Assembly (NCBI GenBank): GCA_043815445.1
Contig: JBDRIY010000054.1
Location: forward strand, 527-64,526
Direction of reading: 5' to 3'
Source: Candidatus Omnitrophota bacterium
GTDB lineage: Bacteria > Omnitrophota > Gorgyraeia > Duberdicusellales > 4484-171
Length of the DNA: 64,000 bases
Shown here: piece after piece, positions 28,609 through 55,281 of the stretch
Position numbering within the stretch: position 1 is the stretch's first letter
How the letters are laid out: the number at the start of each line of letters is the position of its first letter
Program-made: the position numbers and the translations under genes
Notes under the pieces: generated by a model
What the model was told of the DNA's origin: nothing
The model's input: only the letters and a program-made list of their open reading frames with translations
Database searches by the model: none

Positions 28609-30375
28609 TCAGGCGCTGGCGCTATTATGCGACAGTGCCTCTATTTGCCCGGCAAATAACTCTGAAAATTCCCGAACTTCCGCTATGAGCTTTCGGGGAG
28701 CGCCGGCAAGAATATTATTTGGGCTTTTTAAAAAATAAACTGAATCACAGGCCATTATTGTTGATAATCTATGAGAAACAACTATTACAATATCTATAGG
28801 CAAGCTCCGTATATTGCTCATTATTTTTTCCTCGCTGTAAGAATCCATAGAAGACATTGCTTCGTCCAAAATTAAAATTTTAGGTTTATTTATTAAAGCT
28901 CTGGCAATAGCAATTTTTTGCTTTTGGCCTTCAGAAAGTTTACAAGCATTTTCACCGATAACTGTCTCATACCCTTGAGGTAAACTCTTAACAAACTCAT
29001 CTACGCCGGCTAAAGCCGCGGTTTCAACTACTTCATTTCTTGAAGCGTTTTTTTTAGCGTACTTAATATTATTCTCTATACTATCATTCCATAAAAACGG
29101 CTCTTGTAGGGCTACGCTGATTTGCTGTTTTAAAAAAACCTTATCTAATTCTTCTATATTGCGCCCCTGAATAAGCACCTTGCCTTTGCCCGGTTTATAT
29201 ATGCCTAAGATTAAATTTAAAATTGTAGTCTTACCGCACCCGGAAAGTCCGGCTAAAGAAATAACTCCTTTTTCTAAATTAAATTCTATATCCCTTAAAA
29301 CATCTTCCCCTTCACAATAACCAAAACGGACTTTTTTAAACTCTATTCGAGGATTATCAAATATTATTCTTACCTTTGGTTTACCTATTTCAGGCGCCAG
29401 CGAATTTTCTTGCAAAACTTCATTTAAACGGTTGCAGGAAACAAGCCCCATCACTACTCTTTGAAAAAAGAAAGCAACACTGTTTTGTAAGCCAATTAAC
29501 TGGCCTAAATAAATCATTATTGCCGCTAAAGTTCCGGCTGTCATCTGCTCTTTTATCACTAAATAACCGCCGAAAAGAGTAATTAAACCTATAATTATCC
29601 GTTCACAGCTTCCTCCGGCAAAACTGCCAAAAACCTCCAGCCGAACATTTCTTAACCTTATTTTTATCCGGGCAATCAACGCCTTTAAATAACTCCTTGT
29701 TTCCGCTTTTTCTTTTCCCAAGGCTTTGACTAAATGAATATGAGAAAACACCTCTTCCATACGCTTAAAAATATCCTGAGAATTAGTCAATAATTCTTCT
29801 AATATTTTACGCATCCTAAAAGTAACATAATGAACCGGCAAATACATAATCGGCGCCAGAACAAGAGCAAAAAGCGCCATTTGCCAATTAAGATAAAAGA
29901 TAATTGCCAGAATAAAAAGCATTCTGGGAAAAATTTTAATAATTTCCTCGGGAATAGAAACAACCAAATCCACGACTCTATCTATATCATAGTTAACCCT
30001 AAACATATGCTCGCCGGTTGACCTATTTTGAAAAAAATTAAGAGGAAGGTTTTGCAAATGGCTGAATACTTTTTTATTTAAATCAAAATTTACTCTTAGA
30101 TTAACGCTTCTTTTAAACAAAGCTGACACCGCGTTAACAAGGCCGTTAATAATAAATAACCCTGTACCGATTGCCCCAAAAATAATAAAACTCTTTAACT
30201 CCTTGCCTATTATCCCCTTATCTACCGCCAACTTGCTAAGATAAGGCAGAGCTACCCCCAGCAAAACACTTACCCCGCTTAAAAAAAGTATAATAATTCC
30301 TTTTTTACGGTAAGGCAGGAGATATTTTAAGAATTTGAGGAATAACCTGAATTCTTGTTTGTTTATTTTTTTCAT
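28609..30375 (-). CDS. ABC exporter (fused permease + ATPase), candidate peptide exporter
   Basis: Six TM helices, Walker A GLSGCGKTT, LSEGQKQKIAIARAL, ILILDEA. Immediately downstream of the PqqD/HprK/rSAM operon. Confidence 0.8.
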   Translation of the reverse strand: MKKINKQEFRLFLKFLKYLLPYRKKGIIILFLSGVSVLLGVALPYLSKLAVDKGIIGKELKSFIIFGAIGTGLFIINGLVNAVSALFKRSVNLRVNFDLNKKVFSHLQNLPLNFFQNRSTGEHMFRVNYDIDRVVDLVVSIPEEIIKIFPRMLFILAIIFYLNWQMALFALVLAPIMYLPVHYVTFRMRKILEELLTNSQDIFKRMEEVFSHIHLVKALGKEKAETRSYLKALIARIKIRLRNVRLEVFGSFAGGSCERIIIGLITLFGGYLVIKEQMTAGTLAAIMIYLGQLIGLQNSVAFFFQRVVMGLVSCNRLNEVLQENSLAPEIGKPKVRIIFDNPRIEFKKVRFGYCEGEDVLRDIEFNLEKGVISLAGLSGCGKTTILNLILGIYKPGKGKVLIQGRNIEELDKVFLKQQISVALQEPFLWNDSIENNIKYAKKNASRNEVVETAALAGVDEFVKSLPQGYETVIGENACKLSEGQKQKIAIARALINKPKILILDEAMSSMDSYSEEKIMSNIRSLPIDIVIVVSHRLSTIMACDSVYFLKSPNNILAGAPRKLIAEVREFSELFAGQIEALSHNSASA

Positions 30376-30531: not shown

Positions 30532-30813
30532 TTATTTAATCGCCTTTATTTCTTTTAGGTCTTTGAGGAATTTTTTCATTTCTTTTTCAGCTTCTTCTTC
30601 AGTAGTATCAAACTTTTCTAAAACTATTTTTTTGATTGCGGCAAGGCTTTTTTTGCCATCAATTAGCTTCCAAACCTCTGACGCTACCTTATTCAAGGTA
30701 TAAATACAATTTATCTCATCCGAGGTTTTATAAATAGGCATTAAAATAGTTTCATCATCAATTACCCTTGTAACCATATCCGGATTTTTGCGTAAAACTC
30801 CCGCTTTTGCCAT
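30532..30813 (-). CDS. PqqD-family protein (RiPP recognition element-like peptide chaperone)
   Basis: 93 aa. ETILMPIYKTSDEINCIYTLNKVASEVWKLIDGKKSLAAIKKIVLEKFDTTEEEAEKEMKKFLKDLKEIKAI fits the PqqD pattern (LN..a..IW.l.DG...l.eI...l...y ... FL..L). Confidence 0.75.
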   Translation of the reverse strand: MAKAGVLRKNPDMVTRVIDDETILMPIYKTSDEINCIYTLNKVASEVWKLIDGKKSLAAIKKIVLEKFDTTEEEAEKEMKKFLKDLKEIKAIK

Positions 30814-30888: not shown

Positions 30889-31857
30889 CTATACTCTCCT
30901 AACAAAATCAATCACTTTTTTATCATTCACAAACCCCATACTATAACAAGGCACCGCGCTGATTAAATCCTGGCAAAAAGATACAATATTTTCTAAACAC
31001 TGCTTATCCCAAAAAGTAGGAAAAAGCGCGGGATATAGTTTGTTAAAGGCTTCCTTTTTAGAAATTTTCTCCACAATATTTTTTTTGGCGTGGCGAATAA
31101 AGAATAATTTTTTCAAAGGCGCTGAATCTATTCGCGAAGTAAGGTAATCGTTAAAATCACCATGCCAGGGAGAACCGTGAATGGAAAAGCCTTTTCTATC
31201 CTTACGCACAATAATACGATCATCATTCAAAACCATTGCCTTTGTATGTTTATGCCAAATTCGGGCTGTAGTGCTTTTCCCAGCTCCGGATTCACCGGCA
31301 AAAACCAAGCCTTGCCCGTTTAAATCCTTTATCCCAATAGCATGGGTAAAAATCCCTTCCCGCCTTTGAGCAAAATAATTTATTAACAATACCTGTAAAA
31401 AATCATAGATAATATCTCCGGTGCTCCAAACAAATCCTTTGTTTTTTTTAAATAACTCCCGATCTTCTTCTCCAAACATATCTTTTTCTTTTTTAGGCAG
31501 AATAAAAGCTTCTATTTTATCAAAACTTTTGTTTACAAACATTATCTGCTTTTTATCTTCAAGAGGGCTTTTATAAATATAACTATCACCTTTTTTAAGC
31601 AAACGCCAGTTTTCGCTTCCATCCTGAAAATGATAAGTAACAAACAGAGGTTTTGCCTTAAAAACTTGAGGTAATTTATCCACTATTTCTATATCAATTA
31701 AGATATCAGTTTTTTTCTTTCCCTGATAAAAAAAATTATCAAACCTTTCTTCTATTTGAAGCTCTTTCTCTATCTTTGTGAATTGCTTAAGAGGAAACCG
31801 GCTTTGCATTTGAATAACTACGTCCGCAATTTTTAATTTAATTGTTGCTTTTTTCAT
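30889..31857 (-). CDS. HPr kinase/phosphorylase-related P-loop kinase (HprK C-terminal-domain-like)
   Basis: GLVFAGESGAGKSTTARIW aligns to the HprK Walker A (GvLitGdSGvGKSetAL). Size and context resemble the HprK-like kinases found in peptide-modification clusters. Confidence 0.65.
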   Translation of the reverse strand: MKKATIKLKIADVVIQMQSRFPLKQFTKIEKELQIEERFDNFFYQGKKKTDILIDIEIVDKLPQVFKAKPLFVTYHFQDGSENWRLLKKGDSYIYKSPLEDKKQIMFVNKSFDKIEAFILPKKEKDMFGEEDRELFKKNKGFVWSTGDIIYDFLQVLLINYFAQRREGIFTHAIGIKDLNGQGLVFAGESGAGKSTTARIWHKHTKAMVLNDDRIIVRKDRKGFSIHGSPWHGDFNDYLTSRIDSAPLKKLFFIRHAKKNIVEKISKKEAFNKLYPALFPTFWDKQCLENIVSFCQDLISAVPCYSMGFVNDKKVIDFVRRV

Positions 31858-36114: not shown

Positions 36115-36315
36115 AGCTCACCTCGATTTTGATAATTCAAGCTTCTTTGCTCTACACTGGCTATTATAACATTGGGAATTTGAAAAATGAAGAGGCTATT
36201 ACAATGGCCCCCGAAGCCTGCCCTGATTATTATATCGGGATTCCACAAGGATAATGCTAAAGGATAAACAGATATATTTACGGCAAATAACTGGGTCCTC
36301 TTTCCTCTGGTTTGC

Positions 36316-36434: not shown

Positions 36435-36460
36435 TAGAAACAAACCCCTGTATCTGTCCG

Positions 36461-36922: not shown

Positions 36923-38068
36923 TTAATGCCGGTTTTCATCGCCATTTTTCTGTTTATTTTCTAACTCTTCATTTAACGCCCGCGCTAATTCGCAATAATA
37001 AGGAACTGGGGCTTCTTCATCGCCTGTTTCTAAATAGGCTCTGGCCGGGCAGTGATAACAAAGCGCGCGTAACTTACAATCCCTGCATTTTGAGTCAGTT
37101 TTAAATTTCTCGCTTAATAATTTAGGAAATGCTTTATAAAACCCTTCCGCGAACGATACTTTCTTTAAATCCACGCTAAACTTATCAGAAAAAGCGCAAA
37201 ACTTAAGCCGGCCATAAGGATTAATAAAAAACTGGCTCATCCAGGCATTACAGCGGTAAAGAAATTGCCTGTCTCTCTCTAAATCAGGAAAATCATTGTC
37301 TAATCCTTTTTGATACTGCTTCCAAATATCAGAATCCTGCTTTTTCGCCTCTATCAATTCTTGGGCAGAAAGCCTATACTGACAAGGAGTTTTATCTCCA
37401 TTAAACCGGGGGTATATCATTGGATCATATTTAAAATAGTATTTATTCTTTGCCGGTTTTCCCAGAAGTTCTTCAGTAAATTCTTTTATCTTACCGACTT
37501 CATTTTTATTCTGCTTAAGACAATTTGTTTTTAGTATTAAGGGGAGTTTTTTCTTTGCTAATAATTTAACAGTTCTCATCACCTTAGAAAAAGAGCCCTG
37601 AACCTGAGTAATCGCTTCATAAGTTCTTTGGGTTATGCCATTTAAGGTAATTTCTATAGAACAAGGCGGGGATTTAACCAGATAAGAAATGATTTCTTTT
37701 GTAAATTTTTGGCCATTGGTAAAAACAGTTATAATAAATCCTTTTTCTTTAGCATAAGCGTATATCTCTAAAAAATCCTTTCTGATTAAAGGGTCTCCGC
37801 CGGTAAGAGCCAGCCAAAGGCATCCTTGCTTGTGAATTTCATCAAGAATTGTCTTCCATTGCTTTGCGGTTAATTCTTCACCCCTATTTTCGCTCCCTTT
37901 GCAGTAGCAGTGGCCGCAGTTCAAATTGCAGCGATAGGTAAGCTCAATATGCGCGCTCCAAGGATAATGTTCTTTCTTGTTTTGCAGTTTATTATAAAAA
38001 CGGCCGGAGTTTTGAACTTTCATATAAAAAGTTTTTCCTTTATAGACAAACTTAATCTGCGCGCCCAA
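36923..38068 (-). CDS. radical SAM / SPASM-domain peptide-modifying enzyme (paralog C), directly downstream of precursor peptide 1
   Basis: CNLNCGHCYC, GGDPL, SPASM Cys block (CNAW...CAFS...CRDC...CYHCPA). No low-complexity insertion. Confidence 0.85.
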   Translation of the reverse strand: MGAQIKFVYKGKTFYMKVQNSGRFYNKLQNKKEHYPWSAHIELTYRCNLNCGHCYCKGSENRGEELTAKQWKTILDEIHKQGCLWLALTGGDPLIRKDFLEIYAYAKEKGFIITVFTNGQKFTKEIISYLVKSPPCSIEITLNGITQRTYEAITQVQGSFSKVMRTVKLLAKKKLPLILKTNCLKQNKNEVGKIKEFTEELLGKPAKNKYYFKYDPMIYPRFNGDKTPCQYRLSAQELIEAKKQDSDIWKQYQKGLDNDFPDLERDRQFLYRCNAWMSQFFINPYGRLKFCAFSDKFSVDLKKVSFAEGFYKAFPKLLSEKFKTDSKCRDCKLRALCYHCPARAYLETGDEEAPVPYYCELARALNEELENKQKNGDENRH

Positions 38069-38116: not shown

Positions 38117-38326
38117 TTAAGAATTAGCGGATGTCAGCGACCAGTTATTACTGTTCCCTCTATGGCCCTTCCCACTGTAACATATATCGGCCCGTAGAGG
38201 CCAGTTAGTCTCACCCCTAAGCGGGTAGATTTTACCAAGATCCCAACAATCGCACATTAGCACCGCCTGTTCCGCATTAAGTTTTACCCGTGTAATTTCC
38301 GGCTTAAATTTTGGTTTTCTAAGCAT
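38117..38326 (-). CDS. candidate RiPP precursor peptide 1 (69 aa from Met17 of the ORF-track entry)
   Basis: MLRKPKFKPEITRVKLNAEQAVLMCDCWD leader shared with two other peptides. Core has 1 further Cys and ends ...TSANS. AGGAGG lies 7 nt upstream of the ATG. Confidence 0.6.
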   Translation of the reverse strand: MLRKPKFKPEITRVKLNAEQAVLMCDCWDLGKIYPLRGETNWPLRADICYSGKGHRGNSNNWSLTSANS

Positions 38327-39965: not shown

Positions 39966-40140
39966 TTTTTTATGAAACTTTAACTTTCCCATTTTTCGCG
40001 CAGTCCTCAAAGGGTGCTACATTCTTCAATTATCCAAAATTATAAATTCCTGTTTTTACATAATGGCAGCTATAGGGAAAAATGCCTGTGGACGCCTGTC
40101 AACCGATAAACTATAATTAATGTAGATTACAAAGATTAAA

Positions 40141-41547
40141 CTATTCAATGCTATTCTTATTTCTTCTAAACTTAACTCCGCGAATAATCTTATCTGCCTC
40201 TTTATTAAATAACTTTATTTTTCCTGCTTTTTTGTAACATTTCATAAGAGCAAGGCTAACGCGATTATCATTCAAATTCATTTCTTTTGCTTTTATCAAT
40301 GCTTCTATAGCTTTTTTATAATGCCTTAAAGCCTCATAACAAAGGCCTAAAATTAGATAGGCTTTGCCCCCTTTGTAATTTAATTTGAAAACCCTTCTTA
40401 TATTTTTAATAGCTTCCTTATGTTTATGTAACTTCAAATATGCCTCACCAAGTTTTAAATAAGCTAAAATTTTATTCCCATCATCACAAGCGCTCTTTAA
40501 TTCATTTTTATATATTCTTATGGCTTTTCTTTCATCGCCTTTATCTCTTTTAATCGAATTATTCCTTTTTATTAAGACTGCTTTCTTAAATAATGATTCA
40601 CAATAACCGCAGGTATCGCATTTTAAATTACAATTAAGCATTTTCTTAAAAAAATAATTTTTAACCAGAATATCATAATCTATATATTCAAAATAAGAAA
40701 GGCCCGGACAGTCCAGTATTTCCAAAAGATTACCTCTAAAATGTTTACTAATATAAGCCTTGAGGCATAATTCAATTCTCTTTGTAGAAAAAACTCTCGT
40801 TGATAACTTATAATGATTTACAAATTTATCATAACAATCTAATGCGTCTGGCGGTATAAAAGGTACACGGAATACTTTTAAGGAGTTTTTTAAATATACT
40901 TCAATGCAAAATTTATCAGGAAAAACACCTTCTATGATTTTTCCTCGAGATTTTTCTCTATGTGATAAATAATTATAATGATTAACCCTATAAGGACAGT
41001 TGCCCAAACAACCCTCATTAAGCATTACTCGTATTTGAAGGCCGGTTCTCTTCTTTATCTCTTTTATTAAATTAATACTACGATTTATATCCCTATCAAT
41101 GGTTAATACATCTACGCCTAAATCTTTAAGATATAAGGCATGCTCAACGGTTTTCATATAACAGTTAACGGACGACTCTATTATTATACCGCTAATTTCC
41201 TTTTTGATTTTACTAATATAAATAGGGTTCGTAACTACCACAGAGCTAAGCCCTTTATCTCTCAATCTTTTTACATAATCCAATATATTATTAAAAAAAG
41301 TTCCGCTTAATCCAATAACGCCTTCACAGGTCGCGTTTAATAAAAGCTGTGGCCTGATATTTAAAGTATTACATTTTCTTATAATTTTCGGAATCTGTCT
41401 TGTATATGACTTTGGCTCCTGTTGATCCCTTCCAGAACCCAAATATAGCTGCGGTATAGGAAAATAAAAAGCTTCTATATTATCCTTATATGCGCCAATA
41501 AGGTCTAACATTTTAATATCATAGTTATATCCTATAGAGAATTTCAT
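40141..41547 (-). CDS. peptidase-U32-family protein (collagenase-like TIM barrel, Cys cluster) with C-terminal TPR repeats
   Basis: IEAFYFPIPQLYLGSGR ... VVVTNPIYI ... SVNCYM ... IRVMLNEGCLGNCPYRVNHYNYLS follows the U32 block order. CDTCGYCE, then TPR-like helices. Confidence 0.55.
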   Translation of the reverse strand: MKFSIGYNYDIKMLDLIGAYKDNIEAFYFPIPQLYLGSGRDQQEPKSYTRQIPKIIRKCNTLNIRPQLLLNATCEGVIGLSGTFFNNILDYVKRLRDKGLSSVVVTNPIYISKIKKEISGIIIESSVNCYMKTVEHALYLKDLGVDVLTIDRDINRSINLIKEIKKRTGLQIRVMLNEGCLGNCPYRVNHYNYLSHREKSRGKIIEGVFPDKFCIEVYLKNSLKVFRVPFIPPDALDCYDKFVNHYKLSTRVFSTKRIELCLKAYISKHFRGNLLEILDCPGLSYFEYIDYDILVKNYFFKKMLNCNLKCDTCGYCESLFKKAVLIKRNNSIKRDKGDERKAIRIYKNELKSACDDGNKILAYLKLGEAYLKLHKHKEAIKNIRRVFKLNYKGGKAYLILGLCYEALRHYKKAIEALIKAKEMNLNDNRVSLALMKCYKKAGKIKLFNKEADKIIRGVKFRRNKNSIE

Positions 41548-41565: not shown

Positions 41566-41790
41566 TTATGAATTTGAACATCTAGCAGTGCAGTTCTCTT
41601 GGGTAGGTCCAGGCACAGATCTGCAGTATCCGCTTCCCTTTGACGTACAAATCTTCTCCATCCCATCGACAGTACGGAGAGCACCGCCGTCAAGCCAGCC
41701 ATCATCGTAACAGTCACAACTTAATACTGCTTGTTCAATATTAAGTTTTACTTTTGTTATTTCCAGCTTAAATTTTAGTTTTTTAGGCAT
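41566..41790 (-). CDS. candidate RiPP precursor peptide 2
   Basis: MPKKLKFKLEITKVKLNIEQAVLSCDCYD leader. Core has 4 further Cys and ends CSNS. AGGAGGTG RBS. Confidence 0.6.
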   Translation of the reverse strand: MPKKLKFKLEITKVKLNIEQAVLSCDCYDDGWLDGGALRTVDGMEKICTSKGSGYCRSVPGPTQENCTARCSNS

Positions 41791-42048: not shown

Positions 42049-42255
42049 TTAAGATGTGTGACAAGATGAATCGCACTGCGTCCTCCTCGTCATCGTACGA
42101 GTAGCCGGATCGCACACCATTAAATTTGGCAGTCTCGCACGATGTGAACTTCCCTCCCTGCCACTCCATTGGTAACAACCGCAATATAACACTGCCTGCT
42201 CCACTTTGAGTTTTATCTGTATAATTTCCGGCTTAAATTTTAGCTTTCTAAACAC
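42049..42255 (-). CDS. candidate RiPP precursor peptide 3
   Basis: MFRKLKFKPEIIQIKLKVEQAVLYCGCYQW leader. Core has 3 further Cys and ends SCHTS. GGGAGGT RBS. Confidence 0.6.
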   Translation of the reverse strand: MFRKLKFKPEIIQIKLKVEQAVLYCGCYQWSGREGSSHRARLPNLMVCDPATRTMTRRTQCDSSCHTS

Positions 42256-42289: not shown

Positions 42290-43894
42290 TTATCTAAGTA
42301 TAAATATCTGAATTGCCTCAAGCCTATTGGGGTAATAAATAGTTTTGATTGGCCTTTCATCTGGATATTCTTTTTTAAAAAAATTAAACTGCCGAGCAAA
42401 TAAACCGCCCCAATAATCCTGATGATGAGATTCCGGGGCCCAAAGAACATAAATTCTTTTTTTTTGTTCTTTTTCGCCTTGAACTAAACGAAAATAATAA
42501 TATTTATCTATTTTTCCTTTTTCCCAAAGGTAATAATTAAGGTAAAAATCCGTTGTCATTCTGCTATCTTGAATTATAACATAATCTTTAATATCATCCA
42601 ACTGGCTTAAATACTCCGCGGCCTGTTGACAGCCATAACTGTTATGCCGGCACTGATTTAAATCCAAAGACGCGGCATAACAAAATCTTGTCCATTGCGT
42701 CATCTCAGTAACGATTAAACTAAAACAAAGCGCGCCCGCGGTAATCAGGATAAACGCTCTCCTAATTCCTTGTTTTTGGAAACTATAACTAAACATTTGA
42801 GAAATAAATTTAGCGACAATAATTACCATCGGCGGTAAAATAATAAGGACGTATCTTGGTTGGAAAAAACTCACTCCGCTTAGAACTCCCGCAAACCCTA
42901 AAATCAGCCAAATTAAAAGAAGCTTATCCGCTGTTTTCCTTTGGAAAAAAGAAATAATACAAGATACAGTTAGAAGAAAAAATACTATCGGGTGCGCCAG
43001 TAAAGGAGCTTTTAATGCCCGGCCGTAAAGCAAAGATGAACTTTTAAAGTTAAAGAATAAATCTTTGAAGGCAAAGGCAGTATTATTTGTAATATTTGCC
43101 CAAATGTTAGCGAATAGGTTGCTTGTAAAGATATTCACCTGATACCCGCGGTAAAAGTCTCTCCAAAATTTATCTCCTATTGTTATAATTTTATAAATAA
43201 AAGGCAGGATAAATAAAGAAACAATTAGCAATAATGCAATGCCTGTTTTGGGGCTTAAAAAGCTTTTTCTTTCTCCCATAATCCAAAATAATGACACAAA
43301 AAGTATCGGAATAAAAATAATCGCGGATTCATAGCTTGTCAAAGACCCTTGCAGAGAAAAACAAGATAGCAAAAACCATAATCCGGCCCATATTTTTTCT
43401 TTATTCTTGATTGCCTGCAAGGCTTTAAATAAACTTAAAAAAATCAAACAGCCAAAAAAGGGAATCCAGATCACCCTGCCCATAGTCCTGCTATGAATTA
43501 AATGCCAAGGAAGAAAGCATAATAAAAGTGAAGATATAAGGGCTGTTGGACGGCCATACATATATCTTGCCAATATATATAACAATACAACTGTGGCCGC
43601 CCCTATGATTATTGGTTCAAAACGGCAATGGACTATAAAGTTATTTAGGGTAAATGTTTCCGGCACAGATACGCGCAGAGCTAAAAAAACCCGTAAAAAA
43701 TAAGGTAGAAAGGGAAAGGAAATTACAGGAATACCTATAATTTCCTTAATAAATTCCGGCCTTTTCAGCAAAAACCTTGCCCAATTCGCTTCATCATGAT
43801 TTATAGGTAGTATTTCTATATTGTAAAATCTTATAATAAACGCGCCGATAAAAATACTAGTAATTAATAAAATATCCGGCAGCGATCGCTTCAT
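42290..43894 (-). CDS. GT-C-fold membrane glycosyltransferase (PMT/ArnT-like), paralog 2, 34 nt upstream of peptide 3
   Basis: ~75-80% identical to paralog 1 by eye. Same NHDEANWAR and PWHLIHSR blocks. Confidence 0.55.
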   Translation of the reverse strand: MKRSLPDILLITSIFIGAFIIRFYNIEILPINHDEANWARFLLKRPEFIKEIIGIPVISFPFLPYFLRVFLALRVSVPETFTLNNFIVHCRFEPIIIGAATVVLLYILARYMYGRPTALISSLLLCFLPWHLIHSRTMGRVIWIPFFGCLIFLSLFKALQAIKNKEKIWAGLWFLLSCFSLQGSLTSYESAIIFIPILFVSLFWIMGERKSFLSPKTGIALLLIVSLFILPFIYKIITIGDKFWRDFYRGYQVNIFTSNLFANIWANITNNTAFAFKDLFFNFKSSSLLYGRALKAPLLAHPIVFFLLTVSCIISFFQRKTADKLLLIWLILGFAGVLSGVSFFQPRYVLIILPPMVIIVAKFISQMFSYSFQKQGIRRAFILITAGALCFSLIVTEMTQWTRFCYAASLDLNQCRHNSYGCQQAAEYLSQLDDIKDYVIIQDSRMTTDFYLNYYLWEKGKIDKYYYFRLVQGEKEQKKRIYVLWAPESHHQDYWGGLFARQFNFFKKEYPDERPIKTIYYPNRLEAIQIFILR

Positions 43895-43984: not shown

Positions 43985-44158
43985 TAATCTCTTTATGCCA
44001 AATATATTATGGACTGTTTCTTCAAAGTTTGGTAAATCTATTAGGTTAACTTCGAAAGTTTGGTTTGAAAAAATTCTTTTAGAGCATCCTGAATTCTCTA
44101 TTTTACCTGAATATTCAGATGAATTACGAAAAACCAGGGAAGTAAAATGGCGCAAATA
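43985..44158 (+). CDS. small ORF (57 aa), possible toxin partner of the DUF2283-like gene
   Basis: Found by hand, not in the ORF track. MPNILWTVSSKFGKSIRLTSKVWFEKILLEHPEF... Overlaps the downstream ATG by 11 nt (AAATGGCGCAAATAA). Confidence 0.3.
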
Positions 44159-44362
44159 AATATTGTAAAAAGAACTAAGCTGAATTATGACTCGGAAAGC
44201 GATGTGCTTTATATTAATTTTGATCAGCCTCAATCTGCTGATGACAGCGATATCACTGACGAAGGAGTAATTATTCGCCTCAGGGAAAATAAAATTGTCG
44301 GGCTGACTATTCTTAATGCCGCTAAGGCGCTGGTAAGTCATCCTAAACATAAACACTCCTAA
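44147..44362 (+). CDS. DUF2283-like small protein (putative antitoxin-type partner)
   Basis: 71 aa. KLNYDSESDVLYINFDQP...EGVIIRLRENKIVGLTILNA matches the DUF2283 pattern (Y D xxx D xLYI). Confidence 0.5.
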   Translation: MAQINIVKRTKLNYDSESDVLYINFDQPQSADDSDITDEGVIIRLRENKIVGLTILNAAKALVSHPKHKHS

Positions 44363-45843
44363 CTCGCGCTAAACCGGGGATATAAAATTCTCAACTTTTC
44401 CTCTATAATCATCATTTTCTTCTCAATTTTATACAACCCCCTATCTCTTCCATTTTTCTTCTGCCGCAGTCTTTTTGTTTTCAAAAATCCTTTTTTAAAT
44501 TCCTGATATCTATCGCTTATATATTGAATAAGCTCAAATTTGTTTTTAAGATATGGCAAAACCTTGAAAAGCCGCGATAGAACTTCTAGATTACTATAGC
44601 CTGTTCTAATAGCATCCTTATAAAAACCAGCGGCATCATCATATTTTTCTTCATACTCAAAGACGTGGCCTAAAAAATAATAGCTTTGCGCTTGTAAAGG
44701 TTCCAAAGCGCAGTATCGCAGTAACAATTTCTTGGCCTTATTAAAATTTTTTAAATTAAACTCTGTTTTTGCCAGTCCAAACATACTTTCTTTTTGGGCC
44801 TTACTAAATAAACTATCTTTTGTTAAATTTAAAGGTAAAGAAAAATATTTTTTTGCTTTTTTGAAATCTTTTCTTTCTAAAGCAATATTACCTACGCCCC
44901 ATAGTGAGGCTGGATTTTTAGGGTCAACCCGCAATATTTTCAAGAATTCCTTTTCAGCAAGGATAAACTTTCTTAAGGATAAATAAAGCGGGCCGTAATT
45001 ATTATCTTCCGCCCTATAACCGGAATTTATTTCTACTGCTTTACGATAATACTCTTTCTTTCCTGTGGAATAAAAAAGGTTAAAATATTCAGCGGCCTTA
45101 GTATTAATCGAATATCTTTTTTTAAACTTCTCGGGAAAAAAATAATAAGCGATTTCATCCCCTAAATGTTTATATTTCATTGGGGTATAACCGCCATTTA
45201 CTGAATAAGCAATGGTAGTAACTACAGGCCGCCGGACTTTGTCTTTAAGGATATTTACCAATTCCTGAGGTAGAATCCAAGGCCGCCTTTTGCCTATTTT
45301 TATGGTATTATTCGCGTTTAAAAGGCTGTCCACAACTAAAAAATCCGTATCGATGTCCAATAGAATAGGCTGTTCTAAGAATGGTAATTTATCCAACACA
45401 CAAACAATAAACTTTCTTCCTAAAATTTCAGCTGACGCCCAACCGTCTTTTACTATGAGAGATTTTTTATTCTCTTTTTTTATGAAATTTTTGAGGCTAT
45501 TCTTAACAATTTTTAAGGACATTTTAAATTCCTTTAATTCGCCGGGGATAACCCAATAAAAATTCTTAACAATACCTTCTTGAATTGCTGGATAAATATA
45601 ATTTCCGATATTAGTTTGCTTATCAAAGTTTTTTTCATAACGTGTAAAAGCAAGGCTGTATTCTAAATTTCTTTTTAACTCCCGCAAACTTTTTGCCTGG
45701 CTAAATACCTCTTTTATTGGTTTTGCTGGACAAAAACCAAAGTCCATATGAGCGTCAATGTGCACTAAATCAAGGTTTTTAACCCCTCTTTTCCGCCATA
45801 CCGCTAATGCTTGATCGTGATCTTCAATAATATTAATATCCAC
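44359..45843 (-). CDS. protein with arginase/deacetylase-fold-like N-domain (LVHIDAHMDFG) and C-terminal TPR repeats
   Basis: D-A-H-x-D metal-site-like motif. TPR-like helices in the last 200 aa. Confidence 0.35.
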   Translation of the reverse strand: MDINIIEDHDQALAVWRKRGVKNLDLVHIDAHMDFGFCPAKPIKEVFSQAKSLRELKRNLEYSLAFTRYEKNFDKQTNIGNYIYPAIQEGIVKNFYWVIPGELKEFKMSLKIVKNSLKNFIKKENKKSLIVKDGWASAEILGRKFIVCVLDKLPFLEQPILLDIDTDFLVVDSLLNANNTIKIGKRRPWILPQELVNILKDKVRRPVVTTIAYSVNGGYTPMKYKHLGDEIAYYFFPEKFKKRYSINTKAAEYFNLFYSTGKKEYYRKAVEINSGYRAEDNNYGPLYLSLRKFILAEKEFLKILRVDPKNPASLWGVGNIALERKDFKKAKKYFSLPLNLTKDSLFSKAQKESMFGLAKTEFNLKNFNKAKKLLLRYCALEPLQAQSYYFLGHVFEYEEKYDDAAGFYKDAIRTGYSNLEVLSRLFKVLPYLKNKFELIQYISDRYQEFKKGFLKTKRLRQKKNGRDRGLYKIEKKMMIIEEKLRILYPRFSAS

Positions 45844-45992: not shown

Positions 45993-46661
45993 TTATATAT
46001 ACTTTTTTTTATTCCGATAAATATTAAAAACATTCACTCCCTTTTTAGGAATAATAAGCGCCTTTTCCTTAGGAAGAATGACTTGTCTGCCGTTTACATT
46101 TACCTTACGAACAAGACAAACCCATGAATCTACGCGGCCAACCCCGTAAGACATATAAGATATTTTACCTTCATAAAAATGAGTTTTCTTTTGCGTTGGA
46201 TGACAAATGCCAAAATCATATCCTAATAAATAAATTTCATCGCGCTCCTCCTTCATTGCTATGGAAAGCGCGAAAATTCCAACATTAGTTACTTGCCTGT
46301 AATACACTTTATCCTTTTGCTTTCTCTTAGAATAAGTGTAAGCATAAAGCTTTACTTTTGCCAAAAATGGATATTTCTTTACTGTTTTTTGTTCAAAATG
46401 CCCTTGAACGCTATGCAGGCTCACGCCCTGTCTGCTTAATTCCTGCATATAATTAATATTATTCTTAAGAAAAAACCAATCAGTCCATATTTGCCGTTTA
46501 GGTAAGTAGGGCATAGCGCGAACAGCATAATTCAGAGACCATATTTCTTCATTTTCTATTTTCTTCCATAAATCCTTCTTTAACCCTTCAGTCACACTAT
46601 AACCTCCCCCGATTAATATCACTCGTCTTCGTTTACTTTTGCTTTTATTTCTATTTTCCAT
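45993..46661 (-). CDS. hypothetical protein
   Basis: Coherent ORF with a basic N-terminus. No confident family. Confidence 0.3.
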   Translation of the reverse strand: MENRNKSKSKRRRVILIGGGYSVTEGLKKDLWKKIENEEIWSLNYAVRAMPYLPKRQIWTDWFFLKNNINYMQELSRQGVSLHSVQGHFEQKTVKKYPFLAKVKLYAYTYSKRKQKDKVYYRQVTNVGIFALSIAMKEERDEIYLLGYDFGICHPTQKKTHFYEGKISYMSYGVGRVDSWVCLVRKVNVNGRQVILPKEKALIIPKKGVNVFNIYRNKKKYI

Positions 46662-46706: not shown

Positions 46707-48292
46707 TCAGTGTATAAAAAATTTATATATTTTAGCTCCTGAACTAACTAAAGGAGCAATTATGCTAATAAACCGGTTAATAAGCCTTGTCTTAACGCTC
46801 TCAAAACTAATTATTTTTTTATTTTTTATAATACCCATAACCTTACCTAAAAACATTTCCTCAGGGACAAGCTGAGCCGCTGATATAGAATTATCTCCAC
46901 GAATATAAAACAACTGTTTATTGCCTTGTTTACTTTTTTTACCAGGCGGTGGCAAACCTTTTGATTATCTTCCTGATATAAAATAATATCTCCTATTTTC
47001 AAACTTTCAGGCAAAATCTTTTTAATTATAAGCTTTTGACCTTGTTTTATGAACGGCCACATACTAAAGCCAGATGTTTCGAAAAAGGATAAATCATTGT
47101 CTAAATCTTTTTCTTTAGCTTTAAACGCTTTAACATTGGCTGTGAACGAGCTTATTACTTTAAAAAACATATAAAATAGGCGGCTTTTATAGAAAAAGTT
47201 AGCTTTTCGGCTATAAGCGTTAAGGCCGTAATAATTAGCAAATTGTTCCTGAGGAATGTTTAAAATATAATTTGCCGGCTCTTTAAACGTATCGTATAAC
47301 AAAAAATGCGATTTAAGATAAAGTTTTTTACGTTGAGTTTGCGCGTCCGGTAAAAAAGTGTATTTTTCTATAAAATTTTGAATTAATTTCTTTTTATATT
47401 TAGAAACATTCAATTCTTTCATCAAACGCTGATAAAAATTCAGGCCGCTAAGAAATTCTACCTGATAAAGAATAAAAAATAAAGCTGAGCAAAGCTCATA
47501 TTTCTTGCTGACATTTAGACAGTATTCCCAATCAAAAGTTTTTTCATACTTATTCAATAATAACGCGGCATCATAAACGTTTTTTAAGGATAATACCTTA
47601 CCAAATCTTCGCGCGTGCAAGGCTAAGCTAAAAAGAGTATCTTCCGGCGAAAGTAGTTTTATCGCCCTGCCTTCTCTATTAACTTCTCGAACCCTGTCCC
47701 AAATTTCCGGCAATATCGCCCTGCCTTTTCGCTTAAAATCAATACCCCAGTGAAGTTCAGTAACACATAATTTATTTTCTTTTTTAAAAACAAAAGTAAT
47801 ATGGCACTGATCTTGTTTCCAATATTCTTCAGTAAAACCGCCTAACTGTTTCTTATACCCTGCATCATATAATATTGACGCCCCCTTTTCAACATCCCCC
47901 TCTTTAACCAAAAAATCTATATCCGTCATCAGCCGCAAAGGCATCCGGATATATATATCCTCAAGCAATGCCGCGCCTTTAAGAGGTAAAAGCATAACTT
48001 CTGCCTGCTCAAAAGCAGTTAATATCCGCAAAAACTCCTGCCGGATACCTTGACAACGAACCAAAGCGCAATAATGGTTATTTTTCAAAAACTCTATTAA
48101 ATCCAAAGGCAACAACGAGCTAAAATCCTTAACTAAAGAATAAACAAAAGGCGTTAATTCATGATAATTAATAAACTCTTTAAATCTTTCCCAATTGATA
48201 GATTGAGAGTTCAATAATGTTTCAATATTATCTTCTTCTACACCAACTAATTTTCTGACAACAGCTTTAATAAACTCTATTTCAGGAATCAT
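46707..48292 (-). pseudogene. PF14907-type nucleotidyltransferase fused to an S24/S26-like peptidase domain, split by a frameshift in an A7/T7 run (~46932..46938)
   Basis: N-terminus LLPLKGAALLEDIYIRMPLRLMTDIDFLV (NTP_transf_5-like). The C-terminus of the 481-aa ORF has GFSMWPF ... IGDIILY ... CHRLVKKV. The overlapping 82-aa ORF continues YIRGDNSISAAQLVPEEMFLGKV (signal-peptidase boxes D and E). Confidence 0.5.
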
Positions 48293-48322: not shown

Positions 48323-48589
48323 TTAGAAAGTATCTTCATGCTTTGCTATAGTAAGAATAAAAGCGCTATCGCCCATACGCCGATAAACACATCTATAATT
48401 CATAGTTATACTGAATTCCCAGTGGTCTATAGTTCCTTTTATGGGTTTGTGCCTAAGGGAAGGATGACGGGGATTCTTCATAAGAGTATCAAGGCACCAA
48501 TAGAACTTTTCTCTTATTTGCTTTGATAACCCCTTCTTGTTTTTAAGCTTCTTTTTTAAAGGGCCGGGGATATAAATTTCTCTGATCAT
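48323..48589 (-). CDS. RelE/ParE-family toxin
   Basis: 88 aa. ...NPRHPSLRHKPIKGTIDHWEFSITMNYRCVYRRMGDSAFILTIAKHEDTF matches the RelE/ParE fold pattern. Confidence 0.6.
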   Translation of the reverse strand: MIREIYIPGPLKKKLKNKKGLSKQIREKFYWCLDTLMKNPRHPSLRHKPIKGTIDHWEFSITMNYRCVYRRMGDSAFILTIAKHEDTF

Positions 48590-48882
48590 CCTTCAATGTC
48601 TTTTTTCAAATCCTCAACTGATTTATAGGTTGAAAAATCTCCCTTTTTAAAGGCCTCTTCCGACTCTTTAATTTCTTTTTGACATTCCGGACTGAAAAAA
48701 TATCTCTGGTCCTTGTTAACAAAAACTAAAGGTGTTACCACTATCTGGCCATTCCGGACAGCAAGCTTTACAAAATCTCCGTCTTTAATTCCCAAAAGTT
48801 TCCGGATTTCTCTGGGAATGGTAAAATGTCCATTTCTTGCAATTTCTCTCACTATTTGCTTCATCTTCTCTTTCACCTCCAC
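48586..48882 (-). CDS. AbrB/MazE/SpoVT-family antitoxin
   Basis: HFTIPREIRKLLGIKDGDFVKLAVRNGQIVVTP swapped-hairpin motif. 4-nt overlap with the toxin gene. Confidence 0.6.
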   Translation of the reverse strand: MEVKEKMKQIVREIARNGHFTIPREIRKLLGIKDGDFVKLAVRNGQIVVTPLVFVNKDQRYFFSPECQKEIKESEEAFKKGDFSTYKSVEDLKKDIEG

Positions 48883-48933: not shown

Positions 48934-50457
48934 TCAATTCAATAAACTCTGCTTCAAAAATTGTTTTCTTATATACTTATATATTATTGCCCCATCAATA
49001 TTCTTAACTAATTTAAGTTTAAAGTTTTTATCTAAATATTCCTTAATAGATTGGGAATTTTCGTCTATTTTTCCGCTTCTTGCCCAGTCGCAATAAATAA
49101 CCCATAAGCTCTTAAATTTAAGCTTATTTATCTTATTGAACGATATTTGATATCCGCCCTCCCGCATCGGCCTTTGCCAACTGCCGTCAAGAAATCGCGG
49201 GTCAAAAAAGTAATAAAAACTCAGCTTTTTTTTCATATAAAACCCTGCTGAAGGCATAATTGATTCATTGGTAAAAGCAATTATATCCCGCTCTCCTGTA
49301 TTCTCATCTAAAAACCGCGCTATAGGCTTAATCGGCTTTTTTATGTAAGCGCCGGTATGATGTTCCAACGGCACAAACATCTTATCGGTAAAATACATAA
49401 AATTAGTTGTAAAAAGTAGTGAAATCAATACCCCTGTCAAGATTCTCCTTATTAGCGCTCCTTTCAAAGAAACTATCCCTAAAGATAAAATAATATAGAA
49501 ATAAGGGCTGAAAATGATGAAACCCCTGTCTAAATAAATAGAAAAAAAAATCTTAGAAAAAAGAAAAGCCGCGGCAATAGGAATAAAAAATAAAAATAAA
49601 CAAAACAAAAAGTTTTTTCGTAATTCTTTTTTTTTGTAAATAGCGCTAAGGACGGATAAAAAAAGTGTTCCGGCTATTAAATTTCCAACAAAATATAAGG
49701 CTGGAAAACCATTATATCCGGTTATAAAATTTTCCAGAGTAATCAGCAAAGACTTCCACTGAGGCTCGGGAATCCAAAACCCTCTCCAAATATAATAAAA
49801 TTTATCTAAAAATCGGCTTAAATAAAAACAAAATCCGAAAATAATAGTTAAAAAACAAACTATTTCCTTAAAGCGTAGTCGCGCTCTTCTAATAAATATT
49901 AAATATAAGCATTGAGATAAGAATAAAAATATATAAAAATAATTAGTATAAAGTCCAGCTATAGACGCTAGTATAAAATATATCCATAACCTAAGTTTAT
50001 CTTCCCGCATCGCCTTATAAAATAACCAGCTTGAAAGCAGGCCTAAGAATAAAACCATACTGTAATCACGAGCCTCCTGGGCGTACCAGATATGAAAAGG
50101 AGACAAGCCCATAAAAATTCCGGCGATAAAGCCTGTCTTTCTATTAAATAGGGCCTTCCCTAAAACATAAACTAAAATAACTGAAAAAAAACTAAACATT
50201 ACGGAAGGAAAACGTAAACTGAATTCTGAAATACTAAACAGTTTTACCCAAAAATGCAGAAATATCCAGTAAAGCGGAGCATTCCAAGCATACCATGGAA
50301 AACGAGCATAATCGATTGTGCCCAGCTCATCATACCACAAATCATGATAACCCAAATGATACAAGCGTAGAAAAAAGAAAAAACCAAAAATAAGGCTAAT
50401 CCCTATAATCTGTTTCTTCGCGCTTATACTTTCAAAAATCCTTTTAAAATAAGCCAT
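48934..50457 (-). CDS. GT-C-fold membrane glycosyltransferase (PMT/ArnT-like, third member)
   Basis: LWYDELGT acidic loop motif, ~12 TM helices, C-terminal soluble domain. Confidence 0.6.
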   Translation of the reverse strand: MAYFKRIFESISAKKQIIGISLIFGFFFFLRLYHLGYHDLWYDELGTIDYARFPWYAWNAPLYWIFLHFWVKLFSISEFSLRFPSVMFSFFSVILVYVLGKALFNRKTGFIAGIFMGLSPFHIWYAQEARDYSMVLFLGLLSSWLFYKAMREDKLRLWIYFILASIAGLYTNYFYIFLFLSQCLYLIFIRRARLRFKEIVCFLTIIFGFCFYLSRFLDKFYYIWRGFWIPEPQWKSLLITLENFITGYNGFPALYFVGNLIAGTLFLSVLSAIYKKKELRKNFLFCLFLFFIPIAAAFLFSKIFFSIYLDRGFIIFSPYFYIILSLGIVSLKGALIRRILTGVLISLLFTTNFMYFTDKMFVPLEHHTGAYIKKPIKPIARFLDENTGERDIIAFTNESIMPSAGFYMKKKLSFYYFFDPRFLDGSWQRPMREGGYQISFNKINKLKFKSLWVIYCDWARSGKIDENSQSIKEYLDKNFKLKLVKNIDGAIIYKYIRKQFLKQSLLN

Positions 50458-52840: not shown

Positions 52841-53434
52841 ATGCTTGTTTTAATGAGTGGTAATATAATGACTACGAAATATCTTATTTCCAGCAACTGT
52901 CAAAAAATTTTAAAATACCTCCTTTTAAACTCCGGTAAATCTTGTTATGAACGGGAAATTGCCAGAGGATCCGGGGTTAGCTACGGATCTGCAAACCGCC
53001 TTTTAAACGACTTGTATAAAAAAAGAATTGTTGAAAGAAAAATAGAAGGAAAAATGAATTATTATACAGTAGCCTCATCAAACCCTTATCTTCAAGAATT
53101 TAAAATTCTAATCAATTTATTGCTTCTAGAGCCTTTGATTGAAAAACTTAAACCGTATACCCGTAAAATAGTACTTTTTGGCAGCTGTACCACTGGTGAG
53201 AATACACAAGAAAGTGATATAGACCTTTTTATCTTAACTACCGGAGAAGATATAGTTCGTTCGATAATCAGCAAATATTCTTATTCTCCCAAAATTGCTA
53301 ACAAGAAAATACAGGCTATAATAGAATCACCTGCTGATATGGCAAAAACAGCTAAAGAAAGCAAAGTATTTATAGAGCAAGTAAAAAAAGGGAAAATCCT
53401 TTGGGAAAGTGAAATCAATGAAGATTACCTTTAA
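52841..53434 (+). CDS. minimal nucleotidyltransferase (MNT) with N-terminal winged helix, antitoxin-type partner of HEPN
   Basis: LFGSCTTGENTQESDIDLFIL (GS-x9-11-DxD). Confidence 0.6.
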   Translation: MLVLMSGNIMTTKYLISSNCQKILKYLLLNSGKSCYEREIARGSGVSYGSANRLLNDLYKKRIVERKIEGKMNYYTVASSNPYLQEFKILINLLLLEPLIEKLKPYTRKIVLFGSCTTGENTQESDIDLFILTTGEDIVRSIISKYSYSPKIANKKIQAIIESPADMAKTAKESKVFIEQVKKGKILWESEINEDYL

Positions 53435-53900
53435 AGACTGTTTGGCCCGAAAAAGAATTTTTATTTTTGAAGCGGCAAAACATTTAACTGATCTTGAGAT
53501 TAAAGATGCCGAAGACGATTTACAATCAGCAAAACAAGAGTTTGCTAACTCCGGTTTTAAATGGGCAACCATAAAAGGCTACTACGCGATGTTTCACACT
53601 GCAAGGGCTCTTCTTTATTCCAAAGGATATAGAGAACGCGGCCATTACTGTCTTTATTTAGCAACAAAAGAACTTTTCGTGAAAGACGGCGCCCTTGAAA
53701 ATAATTTAGCCGAAGCCTTCCAACAATCTATGATTTTGCGTGAAGACGCTGACTATAAACGAAACTTCTCAAAAAAGAATGCCTCAGCCGTAATTAAAAA
53801 CGCGAAAAAGCTCCTTAAAGCGGCAAAAGCTATTTTAAAAATAAATAATAAAAAGAAACAGACATTAAAAAAGAAAAAAATCTCTCCTTCCAATCAGTAG
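53409..53900 (+). CDS. HEPN-domain protein (toxin-type partner of MNT)
   Basis: Helical. FHTARALLYSKGYRERGHY R-x-H-type region. 26-nt overlap with the MNT gene. Confidence 0.5.
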   Translation: MKSMKITFKDCLARKRIFIFEAAKHLTDLEIKDAEDDLQSAKQEFANSGFKWATIKGYYAMFHTARALLYSKGYRERGHYCLYLATKELFVKDGALENNLAEAFQQSMILREDADYKRNFSKKNASAVIKNAKKLLKAAKAILKINNKKKQTLKKKKISPSNQ

Positions 53901-53925: not shown

Positions 53926-55281
53926 TTATGCGTTAAAATTATTATCGAGAACAATTCTTATCCTCTCTAATTCACCACTGCTTAAATCTGGTGTTTGGAC
54001 AACACACTTATAATTACCGTCATAACTCTGCCAATCTTCTGAGATGAGCTCTCCTCTATTCTTTAAATATTCAAAATATTCTGTTCCCGGAAAAGGAGTA
54101 GCAAGAGAAAATTGTGATGAATCCGGTTGAACGTCTCTAATAAACTTAACTGTCCTGCGAATAGTTTGTTTTGTTTCTCCGGGTAAGCCTAAACAAAAGG
54201 TCAAATGAACCTTTATGCCAAACTGTTTAGTAAGCCTAATCGCTTGATAAGCTTTATCTAAATCCATATCTTTCCCGCAAGAATTCAATATATTCTGGTC
54301 CCCTGATTCTATTCCATATTTAACCGCGTACAGCCCGGCGCCGGACATAACTTTTAACAAAGATTTATCCATAAGGTCAACTCTGGCCATAATTGCCCAA
54401 GGTATCTTAATTTTTCTTTTTACTATCTCATTACAAATATTTAAAACATAATCTTTATTAATATTAAATACATCATCATCAAAGTATACTGCTTTAAATT
54501 TAAAATTATTAAGTAAATATTCCATTTCATCCACAACATCTACGGGATTTCTCTTTCTATATTTACGTTCTTTATAGATTGTTTGAGGCCAAAGACAAAA
54601 ATTGCATTGGAAGGGGCACCCCCGGCTGGCGCAGATTTGAACATTTGGCACAGGCAAGCCGGCAAAACCATCATTATATTTATAGATATTCATATCCTCT
54701 CTTTCCGGCCAAGGCAAACTGTCAAGGTTATCAATGGCCGGCTGCGAAAAATTGATTTTAATCTCGCCGTCTTCTCGATAAGCTAAGCCTGATACGGATT
54801 TTAAATTTATCTTCTTTTCTAAACAATTTATTAGATTCAATAAAATATATTCATATTCTCCCAATAGTATATACTTAATAATGCTATATTCTCTTAAGAT
54901 TTTTTCGGGAAATACACTGGCTTGAGGCCCGCTTAAGGCTATTTGACAGTCAGGCAAGATATCCCTAATTTTGTGAATAATTCTTAAATCATTCTTAAAC
55001 GACGGGCATGAAGTTTCCACAAGAATAAATTCCGGATTAAAACAGTAAATTTTTTTAAAAAAATTCTCCTCGCTAACGCCTTCGGCAATAGCGTCAAATA
55101 ATTTAACTGATTTCCCTTCTCTTTTCAAAACAGCCGCGGCATAAGCAAGAAAAAAGGGGAAAGGAACATAATGAATACGCCCGTCTTTTTCAGGTAAGGA
55201 GGTAAACGGCCAGCGTGAACCCGCCCTTACTCCCAAACGCTGTTCTTCTCTCCATGGAAGGTTTAATAAAAGTGCCCGCAT
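53926..55281 (-). CDS. B12-binding radical SAM enzyme (class B)
   Basis: N-terminal cobalamin-binding-like domain. ASRGCPFQCNFCLWP (CxxxCxxC). Confidence 0.8.
   Translation of the reverse strand: MRALLLNLPWREEQRLGVRAGSRWPFTSLPEKDGRIHYVPFPFFLAYAAAVLKREGKSVKLFDAIAEGVSEENFFKKIYCFNPEFILVETSCPSFKNDLRIIHKIRDILPDCQIALSGPQASVFPEKILREYSIIKYILLGEYEYILLNLINCLEKKINLKSVSGLAYREDGEIKINFSQPAIDNLDSLPWPEREDMNIYKYNDGFAGLPVPNVQICASRGCPFQCNFCLWPQTIYKERKYRKRNPVDVVDEMEYLLNNFKFKAVYFDDDVFNINKDYVLNICNEIVKRKIKIPWAIMARVDLMDKSLLKVMSGAGLYAVKYGIESGDQNILNSCGKDMDLDKAYQAIRLTKQFGIKVHLTFCLGLPGETKQTIRRTVKFIRDVQPDSSQFSLATPFPGTEYFEYLKNRGELISEDWQSYDGNYKCVVQTPDLSSGELERIRIVLDNNFNA

Follow-up and report, generated by a model that had tools for sequence, protein, structure and literature searches.

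An interrupted gene for a predicted nucleotidyltransferase-S26 peptidase fusion in a radical SAM-rich, RiPP-like locus of Candidatus Omnitrophota

The gene examined here lies in a stretch of 64,000 nucleotides from the metagenome-assembled genome (MAG) of a Candidatus Omnitrophota bacterium (assembly GCA_043815445.1, contig JBDRIY010000054.1, positions 527 to 64,526 of the forward strand); this whole stretch is referred to below as the window. The gene (46707..48292, minus strand) belongs to a locus of about 35 kb on one strand that resembles the biosynthetic loci for peptides made on the ribosome and modified after translation (RiPPs), and it combines a PF14907-family nucleotidyltransferase (NTase), a helical domain, a predicted S26B-type peptidase domain and a C-terminal helix. 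As reported in an earlier note made from the letters of this DNA, two overlapping open reading frames (ORFs) cover the gene: one of 481 aa (46847..48292), which defines frame 0 and encodes the NTase half and half of the S26 domain, and one of 82 aa (46707..46955) in another frame. The NTase and helical region, supported by the PF14907 match, invariant alignment columns and the fold, takes up residues 1-385 (47138..48292). The first half of the S26 domain follows in frame 0 (46941..47107) and carries the nucleophile box GFSMWPF and the HR box, and the second half, with the RGDNS box, is encoded together with the C-terminal helix in the -1 frame (46707..46933); all of these features are on the minus strand. 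The peptidase motifs quoted in the note were all recovered: frame 0 contains GFSMWPF, GDIILY and HRLVKKV, and the second frame contains YIRGDNSISAAQL...GKV.

At the junction the minus strand reads ...CAC CGC CTG GTA AAA AAA GTA AAC..., and reading passes from the upstream frame into one shifted by -1. The run of seven A (A7) proposed as the meeting point of the two frames exists, 2 nt away from the positions first given (~46932..46938), at 46934..46940 of the minus strand, where frame 0 reads it as the slippery heptamer A_AAA_AAA. It lies inside the interval in which homology passes from frame 0 to frame -1 (46919..46941, minus strand), and the missing base may be anywhere within this interval. 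Addition of one base, for example A7 to A8, fuses both frames into a 528-aa product, and one A fewer in the run leads to an immediate stop. With a hidden Markov model (HMM) of the orthologous S26 domains, the unrepaired frame-0 product scores 102 bits, and a single 1-nt insertion anywhere in 46919-46941 brings the score to 183.5-186.2 bits: 183.7 bits for the A7 to A8 repair (KKSKQG) and 186.2 bits for a repair just 3' of the run (KKVKQG), which restores a hydrophobic residue seen in the orthologues. Profile scoring, by which these alternatives differ by 2.5 bits, cannot place the missing base in the A7 run; the run is the most mutable candidate and not the sole one, and the change is most plausibly an A8 to A7 loss. 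As assembled, the 481-aa product comprises a complete NTase and half of a peptidase barrel. The GDN box, four beta-strands and the C-terminal helix are missing from it, and it ends in a 28-residue out-of-frame tail. The corresponding NCBI entry (MFH1504505.1) describes it as an intact 'nucleotidyltransferase family protein', and the peptidase half is therefore invisible in the current annotation.

The N-terminal half of the protein was confidently assigned to PF14907 (NTP_transf_5), as first proposed, with a match at residues 31-277 (E 7e-40, 137.6 bits against a gathering threshold of 31.2) and with K105, G106, D124 and D126, which belong to the Gly-rich loop and the DxD carboxylates of a Pol-beta-type NTase signature, invariant in 88 homologues. 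The joined C-terminal domain alone matches TIGR02228, the NCBIfam model of archaeal-type signal peptidase (SPase) I, across the junction (E 1.6e-14, 54.1 bits, above the trusted cutoff of 51.85 bits; the whole repaired protein, at 51.6 bits, falls slightly under this cutoff), and gives weaker NCBIfam matches to SipW, bacterial SPase I and the nickel superoxide dismutase (Ni-SOD) maturation protease. The repaired protein aligns without gaps across the junction and end to end with 17 intact fusion proteins (at the junction, CHRLVKKSKQGNKQLFYIRGDNS in the window against CHRLIRKIKRGESYLLYVRGDNS in homologue P0003), and G408, S410, M411, P413, G434, H448, R449, G466 and D467 are invariant in the fusion alignment. 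Together, these results bear out the earlier claim that an S24/S26 domain begins in frame 0 and runs on in the other frame.

The same note had called for an alignment of the S26 catalytic Ser and Lys. In a profile alignment of the fusions with bacterial SPase I structures in the PDB, GwSMyP falls on GKSMMP and HRlv on KRII; Ser410 (codon 47063-47065) aligns to the nucleophile box of 4nv4, and the position of the general-base Lys of bacterial SPase I is occupied by His448 (46949-46951), so that the nucleophile is as expected and the base is His, not Lys. Because His448 stands at the Lys position and TIGR02228 is the best family match, the peptidase is predicted to be of the endoplasmic reticulum (ER)/archaeal S26B type, with Ser410, His448 and Asp467 (46893-46895), and not of the Ser/Lys type. 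G466 and D467 are read in the -1 frame in the assembled sequence and join the same polypeptide only after the 1-nt repair. An AlphaFold2 model of the repaired protein built with 88 sequences (predicted local distance difference test score, pLDDT, 93.3; predicted template modelling score, pTM, 0.80) places the residues after the junction in four beta-strands and the C-terminal helix of the peptidase barrel. In Foldseek searches, the nearest structures were the ANT(2'')-Ia, LnuA and TM1012 nucleotidyltransferases for the N-terminal half, with 5cfs and 4xje among the neighbours, and human SEC11A/C, LexA C-domains and bacterial SPase I for the C-terminal domain. No hydrophobic anchor was found in the protein (maximum hydropathy over 19 residues, KD19, 1.4), and for this reason the protease domain is predicted to be soluble, not a membrane signal peptidase. 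Taken together, the sequence evidence indicates a single gene for a predicted bifunctional, soluble NTase-S26 peptidase with a helical linker domain.

Two groups of S26 enzymes are the closest counterparts of the peptidase domain. The S26B enzymes (SEC11A/C, archaeal SPase I and Bacillus SipW) share the GxSMxP box, the HR box with its His and the GDN box, and human SEC11A/C is the nearest to the modelled beta-barrel among S26 structures; unlike them, the domain described here has no membrane anchor, follows a cytoplasmic enzyme and is encoded beside a PqqD-type RiPP recognition element (RRE). SodX, the S26-family Ni-SOD maturation protease (TIGR02754), is likewise a small soluble enzyme, which removes the N-terminal leader of one cytoplasmic substrate, but it has another substrate and another gene context, and the match to its model is weak (E 1e-4, 22.8 bits against a family cutoff of 63.25).

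The comparison set consisted of 120 database homologues, essentially all from Candidatus Omnitrophota, and 43 genomic loci (numbered L001 and so on). The earlier note had recommended a search for uninterrupted orthologous fusions and had considered the architecture unusual. Uninterrupted two-domain proteins of 538-645 aa make up 17 of the 120 homologues and a further one (P0119) has the reversed order with S24/S26 preceding the NTase, so that the fusion is not rare in this lineage; fusions of an NTase with a leader peptidase were already on record from lasso-peptide clusters (PMC8498205). The NTase and the S26 domain share one ORF in L001, L002/3/4/7, L005, L006, L009, L013 and L026. In L008, the nearest relative among the genomic loci returned (57% identity across the NTase), the genes for a 400-aa NTase and for a 137-aa S26 protein share 4 nt; separate NTase and S26 genes flank a PMT_2 fragment in L011/L044; and in L014, L016 and L039, a stand-alone S26 gene adjoins the PqqD gene. 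Altogether, more than 12 loci have the S26 domain either fused to or beside the NTase, or beside PqqD, and many loci encode the NTase without any S26 domain within 10 kb.

Separate genes for the two domains, raised in the note as grounds for rejecting the fusion, thus do occur in L008 and L011/L044, but the site of these splits cannot explain the break in the window. All natural NTase/S26 splits (L008, L011) are at the domain boundary, where the downstream gene has its own start codon; in the window gene this boundary contains neither a stop nor a start codon, and the break falls within the peptidase domain, in the stretch that separates the HR box from the GDN box. A reading of the window as two separate genes was rejected on these grounds. 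The HR-GDN spacing after repair is 11 residues, equal to that in L001, L005 and L008. A longer subtype of the family, about 615 aa (P0004, P0012, P0013, P0025 and relatives), has the box GWSMYPN and a third, C-terminal domain that is weakly GNAT-like (Acetyltransf_7, E 0.003; YVKxxYRKLGxE). S26-like paralogues in which the nucleophile Ser is replaced by Cys (GMCMYP, GTCMYP), extended at the C-terminus by about 200 aa, are encoded beside PqqD in L016 (5904-7118) and L039 (9406-10437).

As to the cause of the break, we infer an ordinary, non-programmed loss of a single base, and a genuine and very recent loss-of-function allele, to which we would give an even chance, appears slightly likelier than an error of assembly or consensus. 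The -1 frame is free of stops over 77 codons (P ~0.006 by chance at this base composition), and the break must therefore be either recent or artefactual. Decay is tolerated in the family, as witnessed by the many loci that have the NTase and lack S26 and by the degenerate copy in L047 (10001-10673 and 13445-13950), where the nucleophile Ser has become Asn (GFNMWP), a 1-nt deletion lies in the Arg codon of RGDN and the NTase is broken over three frames, while PqqD and the precursor peptide are still intact.

Several points limit this preference. The gene is otherwise pristine, with the catalytic residues kept, the -1 frame open and the identity to orthologues normal, a condition equally compatible with an artefact and with a very young mutation. 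Neither reads nor a second assembly were found: exact-protein look-ups with the 481-aa product, the 82-aa product and a 222-aa neighbouring protein gave no match, nor did a search of the Joint Genome Institute (JGI) metagenome contigs with the exact junction DNA pattern carrying A6-A9, and the GTDB representative genomes returned did not include the contig of the window. Low-level frameshifting or transcriptional slippage at A_AAA_AAA could still give some full-length protein. It is accordingly quite conceivable, if somewhat short of an even chance, that the gene of the organism is intact and encodes the 528-aa enzyme, the MAG consensus having lost one base: a one-base repair gives exactly the orthologous HR-GDN length of 11 residues (L001, L005, L008), no secondary decay is seen (Ser, His and Asp kept, 77 stop-free codons, normal identity), the record is a single-contig MAG for which the look-ups found no second assembly, and homopolymers are the classic place for consensus indels. 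On the other hand, the long ORFs of the window contain 117 A/T runs of at least seven that are in frame (88 of 7, 24 of 8 and 5 of 9, that is, 29 of 8-9), and a tblastn comparison with 833 ORF proteins from related loci, which covered about 27 kb of homologous sequence, revealed a single frame break, the one at ~46920-46950 (11 probes). This assembly is therefore not prone to homopolymer errors, and the missing base need not be in a homopolymer at all.

Slippage-prone expression, the third option of the earlier note beside a pseudogene and a sequencing indel, fared much worse than these two, for which the assessment above leaves a young pseudogene and an indel both well in play. Programmed recoding would mean a -1 frameshift or transcriptional slippage at A7 that yields the 481-aa and 528-aa products in a set ratio, as in dnaX-type frameshifting, where the 0 frame likewise presents a slippery heptamer of the X_XXY_YYZ form that is rich in A. 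Such a heptamer is present just where a -1 shift gives the homologous continuation, and two isoforms are conceivable, NTase-only and NTase-peptidase forms both being natural in the family. However, no orthologue conserves the site: L001 (AGG AAG ATT AAG) and L005 (GTG AAA AAG GTT) have no A-run at this position, L002/L004 have it displaced, and none of the other members (120 proteins, 43 loci) has a break here. Unlike in dnaX, the 84 nt downstream contain no significant structure and no stimulatory stem-loop (minimum free energy -15 kcal/mol, z -0.40; 60 of 200 shuffled sequences fold at least as well), no upstream stimulator of the Shine-Dalgarno type is evident in the sequence, and the shift would occur inside a folded domain, leaving the frame-0 product with a useless half of the peptidase fold and the 28-residue tail. 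Seven A are also short for efficient transcriptional slippage. Recoding thus appears highly improbable, and the preferred explanation remains a recent, ordinary loss of one base.

The genes around the interrupted gene point to peptide maturation. An association of PF14907 proteins with PqqD and HprK-like systems, suggested in the earlier note, was found both in the relatives and in the window. In the relatives, the fusion gene lies directly upstream of PqqD, amid radical S-adenosylmethionine (SAM)/SPASM enzymes, ScmC and an ATP-binding cassette (ABC) exporter; PqqD is beside the S26 domain in most of them and in the window has shifted next to ScmC. The window encodes, on the minus strand, an ABC exporter with fused membrane and ATPase domains (28609..30375), the PqqD-family peptide-binding protein or RRE (30532..30813), a ScmC-family P-loop protein with the phosphotransferase fold of phosphoenolpyruvate carboxykinase (PEPCK) and HprK, a putative peptide kinase (30889..31857), two peptide-maturase-type radical SAM enzymes (31908-33074 and 33076-34179), a third radical SAM enzyme (36923..38068), a radical SAM/SPASM enzyme (57203-58438) and one more enzyme of the radical SAM type (58431-59570). 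B12-radical SAM enzymes are encoded at 53926-55281 and 60717-62129. The locus thus has at least five radical SAM/SPASM enzymes, in addition to glycosyltransferases (GTs). The PqqD protein matches the profiles lasso_PqqD_Bac (E 1.5e-7) and PQQ_PqqD (2e-8), both under their cutoffs, and PF05402 was detected in the PqqD proteins of orthologous loci. A protein with UPF0489 and tetratricopeptide repeat (TPR) domains (44359..45843, minus strand) is a conserved neighbour, for L008 and L011/L044 have its counterpart immediately downstream of their S26 gene.

Three short ORFs on the minus strand that are absent from the annotation encode precursor-like peptides: peptide 1 of 69 aa (38117..38326), with the conserved leader KFKPEITRVKLNAEQAVLMCDC and a C-terminal Ser, directly upstream of the radical SAM gene at 36923..38068; peptide 2 of 74 aa (41566..41790); and peptide 3 of 68 aa with a GTG start (42049..42255). 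They have the common leader KFKPEITRVKLNxEQAVLxCxC, and 12 loci have members of this family beside PqqD or ScmC. An alignment of 19 sequences has 11 invariant positions (K6, F7, L16, E19-Q-A-V-L23, C25, C27 and C49); Ser is the last residue in all 19, and outside the invariant positions the sequence is hypervariable. None of the NCBIfam models matched the three peptides. A 182-aa protein of L005 (5838-6386) joins PqqD to a C-terminus that resembles a precursor (...PEISKVKLQPEQAVLACC...SGSS), so that an RRE and its substrate are combined in one polypeptide.

The ScmC-family protein carries a Walker A motif. Its model, for which database homologues were aligned (pLDDT 86.7), is most similar to ATP-dependent PEP carboxykinases (E 6e-8), and it matches HprK_rel_B, the NCBIfam model of HprK-related kinase B, with E 4.7e-7 and 29 bits against a cutoff of 200; searches of the PDB by sequence and profile gave P-loop matches only, with HprK at E ~0.7. 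PEPCK and HprK share one phosphotransferase fold class. From the model, the protein is a putative peptide kinase of the PEPCK/HprK fold. ORFs of about 650 aa in L014, L016, L039 and L046 encode a radical SAM/SPASM enzyme with the ScmC domain fused behind it, an arrangement that ties the function of ScmC to the radical SAM step.

Direct observation covers what the domains are, which catalytic residues are conserved, how the genes are associated and fused, and the family of precursors; the functional scheme, including each catalytic step, the substrates and the order of events, is inferred by analogy. In this scheme, PqqD would bind the conserved leader KFKPEITRVKLNPEQAVL of the precursors and present them to the enzymes, the radical SAM enzymes would act on the core that bears the three invariant Cys, the ScmC kinase would phosphorylate the invariant C-terminal Ser, the NTase domain would decorate the phosphorylated Ser further, as PsmN does in pseudomycoidin, and the fused S26 domain would cut off the leader in the cytoplasm ahead of ABC export.

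The best functional analogue would be the set of kinase, PsmN nucleotidyltransferase and leader peptidase of the phosphorylated lasso peptides. In these systems, an HprK-type kinase phosphorylates the C-terminal Ser of the precursor, and PsmN, described as an 'uncharacterized NTP transferase' in which D134/D136 are essential and for which 5cfs/4xje are structural neighbours, is needed for hexose addition to the phosphate on the C-terminal Ser (PMC6993621, PMC8498205); a fusion of the NTase with the leader peptidase B2 occurs in several lasso clusters (PMC8498205). The paeninodin and pseudomycoidin systems and the present one have in common a DxD NTase with the ANT(2'')-like neighbours 5cfs and 4xje, at times joined to a known or putative leader peptidase, as well as an RRE of the PqqD type, an ABC exporter and precursors that end in Ser; the ScmC-family P-loop protein would be the counterpart of their kinase, in the HprK/PEPCK class. 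There are also differences: an S26 Ser/His peptidase stands here in place of the transglutaminase-like Cys protease B2, and radical SAM/SPASM enzymes with Cys-rich cores of 40-60 aa in place of macrolactam chemistry. Neither a B2 protease nor a lasso cyclase was found among the window genes scanned or in the orthologous loci. The SynChlorMet cassette (ScmC, ScmD/PqqD and ScmE/ScmF; TIGR04248-04251) has the same types of components, and the Pfam ScmC family PF27840 includes the homologues of the window's ScmC, but the equivalog scores are far under the cutoffs (ScmC 32 against 125, ScmD 33 against 100, ScmE 72-111 against 400), and SynChlorMet is a defined cassette without the NTase, the S26 peptidase or the precursor family of the window.

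By this analogy, we tentatively propose a new RiPP class in Omnitrophota, a possibility that we regard as a little more than one chance in three, characterized by the leader KFKPEITRVKLNPEQAVL, an S26 leader peptidase and ScmC/NTase decoration of the terminal Ser. The following points weigh against the functional scheme. The scheme is analogical throughout; PsmN is likened to the PF14907 NTase by its description and the shared structural neighbours, not by a Pfam match; ScmC is closer to PEPCK than to HprK in the fold search, with HprK at E ~0.7 by sequence; no cleavage motif could be assigned in the precursors, where the leader end AVLxCxC lacks an obvious small -3/-1 motif; and the many PMT_2 and GT genes permit a reading of the locus as one for surface glycosylation.

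The richness in PMT_2 and GT genes, the missing cleavage motif and the presence of LexA C-domains among the structural neighbours would also fit an S26 domain that is not a RiPP leader peptidase and instead processes proteins of the PMT_2/GT machinery or serves as a LexA-like, self-cleaving regulator of the NTase. We consider this unlikely: the S26 domain persistently adjoins PqqD even where it is not fused to the NTase (L014, L016, L039), a His at the Lys position, together with the match to TIGR02228, indicates S26B rather than S24, and the conserved-leader precursor family co-occurs with S26.

Fusions of an NTase with a leader peptidase are known from lasso clusters, and the frame break is ordinary in itself. 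Literature searches on PF14907, ScmC/SynChlorMet, Omnitrophota RiPPs and S26 RiPP peptidases yielded nothing specific, and in the literature covered they turned up no S26B peptidase in this role that is combined with radical SAM chemistry and these precursors in Omnitrophota. If the proposed role is correct, the enzyme would be the first RiPP leader peptidase of the signal peptidase family, which suggests that enzymes of the signal peptidase type have been recruited as cytoplasmic, RRE-guided RiPP proteases. With independent fusions in both orders, natural splits and adjacency to PqqD, the hypothesis is a clear one, and intact orthologues would allow it to be tested. The architecture, which matters more than the break, links the large, uncharacterised Pfam family PF14907 and the uncharacterised ScmC family to a defined set of precursors, in a phylum whose biochemistry has hardly been studied by experiment; the interest of the frame break is local, since it decides whether this strain can process its peptides.

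Among the other genes of the locus, three paralogues of the GT-C membrane glycosyltransferase PMT_2 (38367-40010, 42290-43894 and 48934-50457, minus strand) were identified, two of which are immediately upstream of a precursor gene; this adjacency hints that the exported peptides are glycosylated. A protein with a weak Peptidase_U32-like domain and TPRs is encoded directly downstream of precursor 2 (40141-41547, minus strand) and could likewise serve in peptide modification; the L005 cluster has a U32 gene as well (3857-4900). A 222-aa, weakly MptE-like (DUF115-type) gene (45993-46661, minus strand) lies between the fusion gene and the UPF0489-TPR gene, a position at which it is missing in L008 and L011. 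Toxin-antitoxin and defence insertions interrupt the locus at 34309-36895, 43995-44362 (plus strand), 48323-48882 and 52841-53900 (plus strand), and the inserted cassettes include AbiEii with DUF6577, PDDEXK_3, a DUF2283 pair, MazE-like with ParE-like proteins and MNT with HEPN. The MazE/ParE-like pair separates PMT_2 from the NTase, genes that abut in L008 and L011. Finally, the upstream end of the locus has the only Asn synthase among the window genes scanned (62145-63947, minus strand; PF00733 9e-89, GATase_7 3e-42). Asn synthetases have homologues in the lasso cyclases, but this protein is unlikely to be one, its strong GATase domain being typical of AsnB and arguing for an ordinary amidotransferase.

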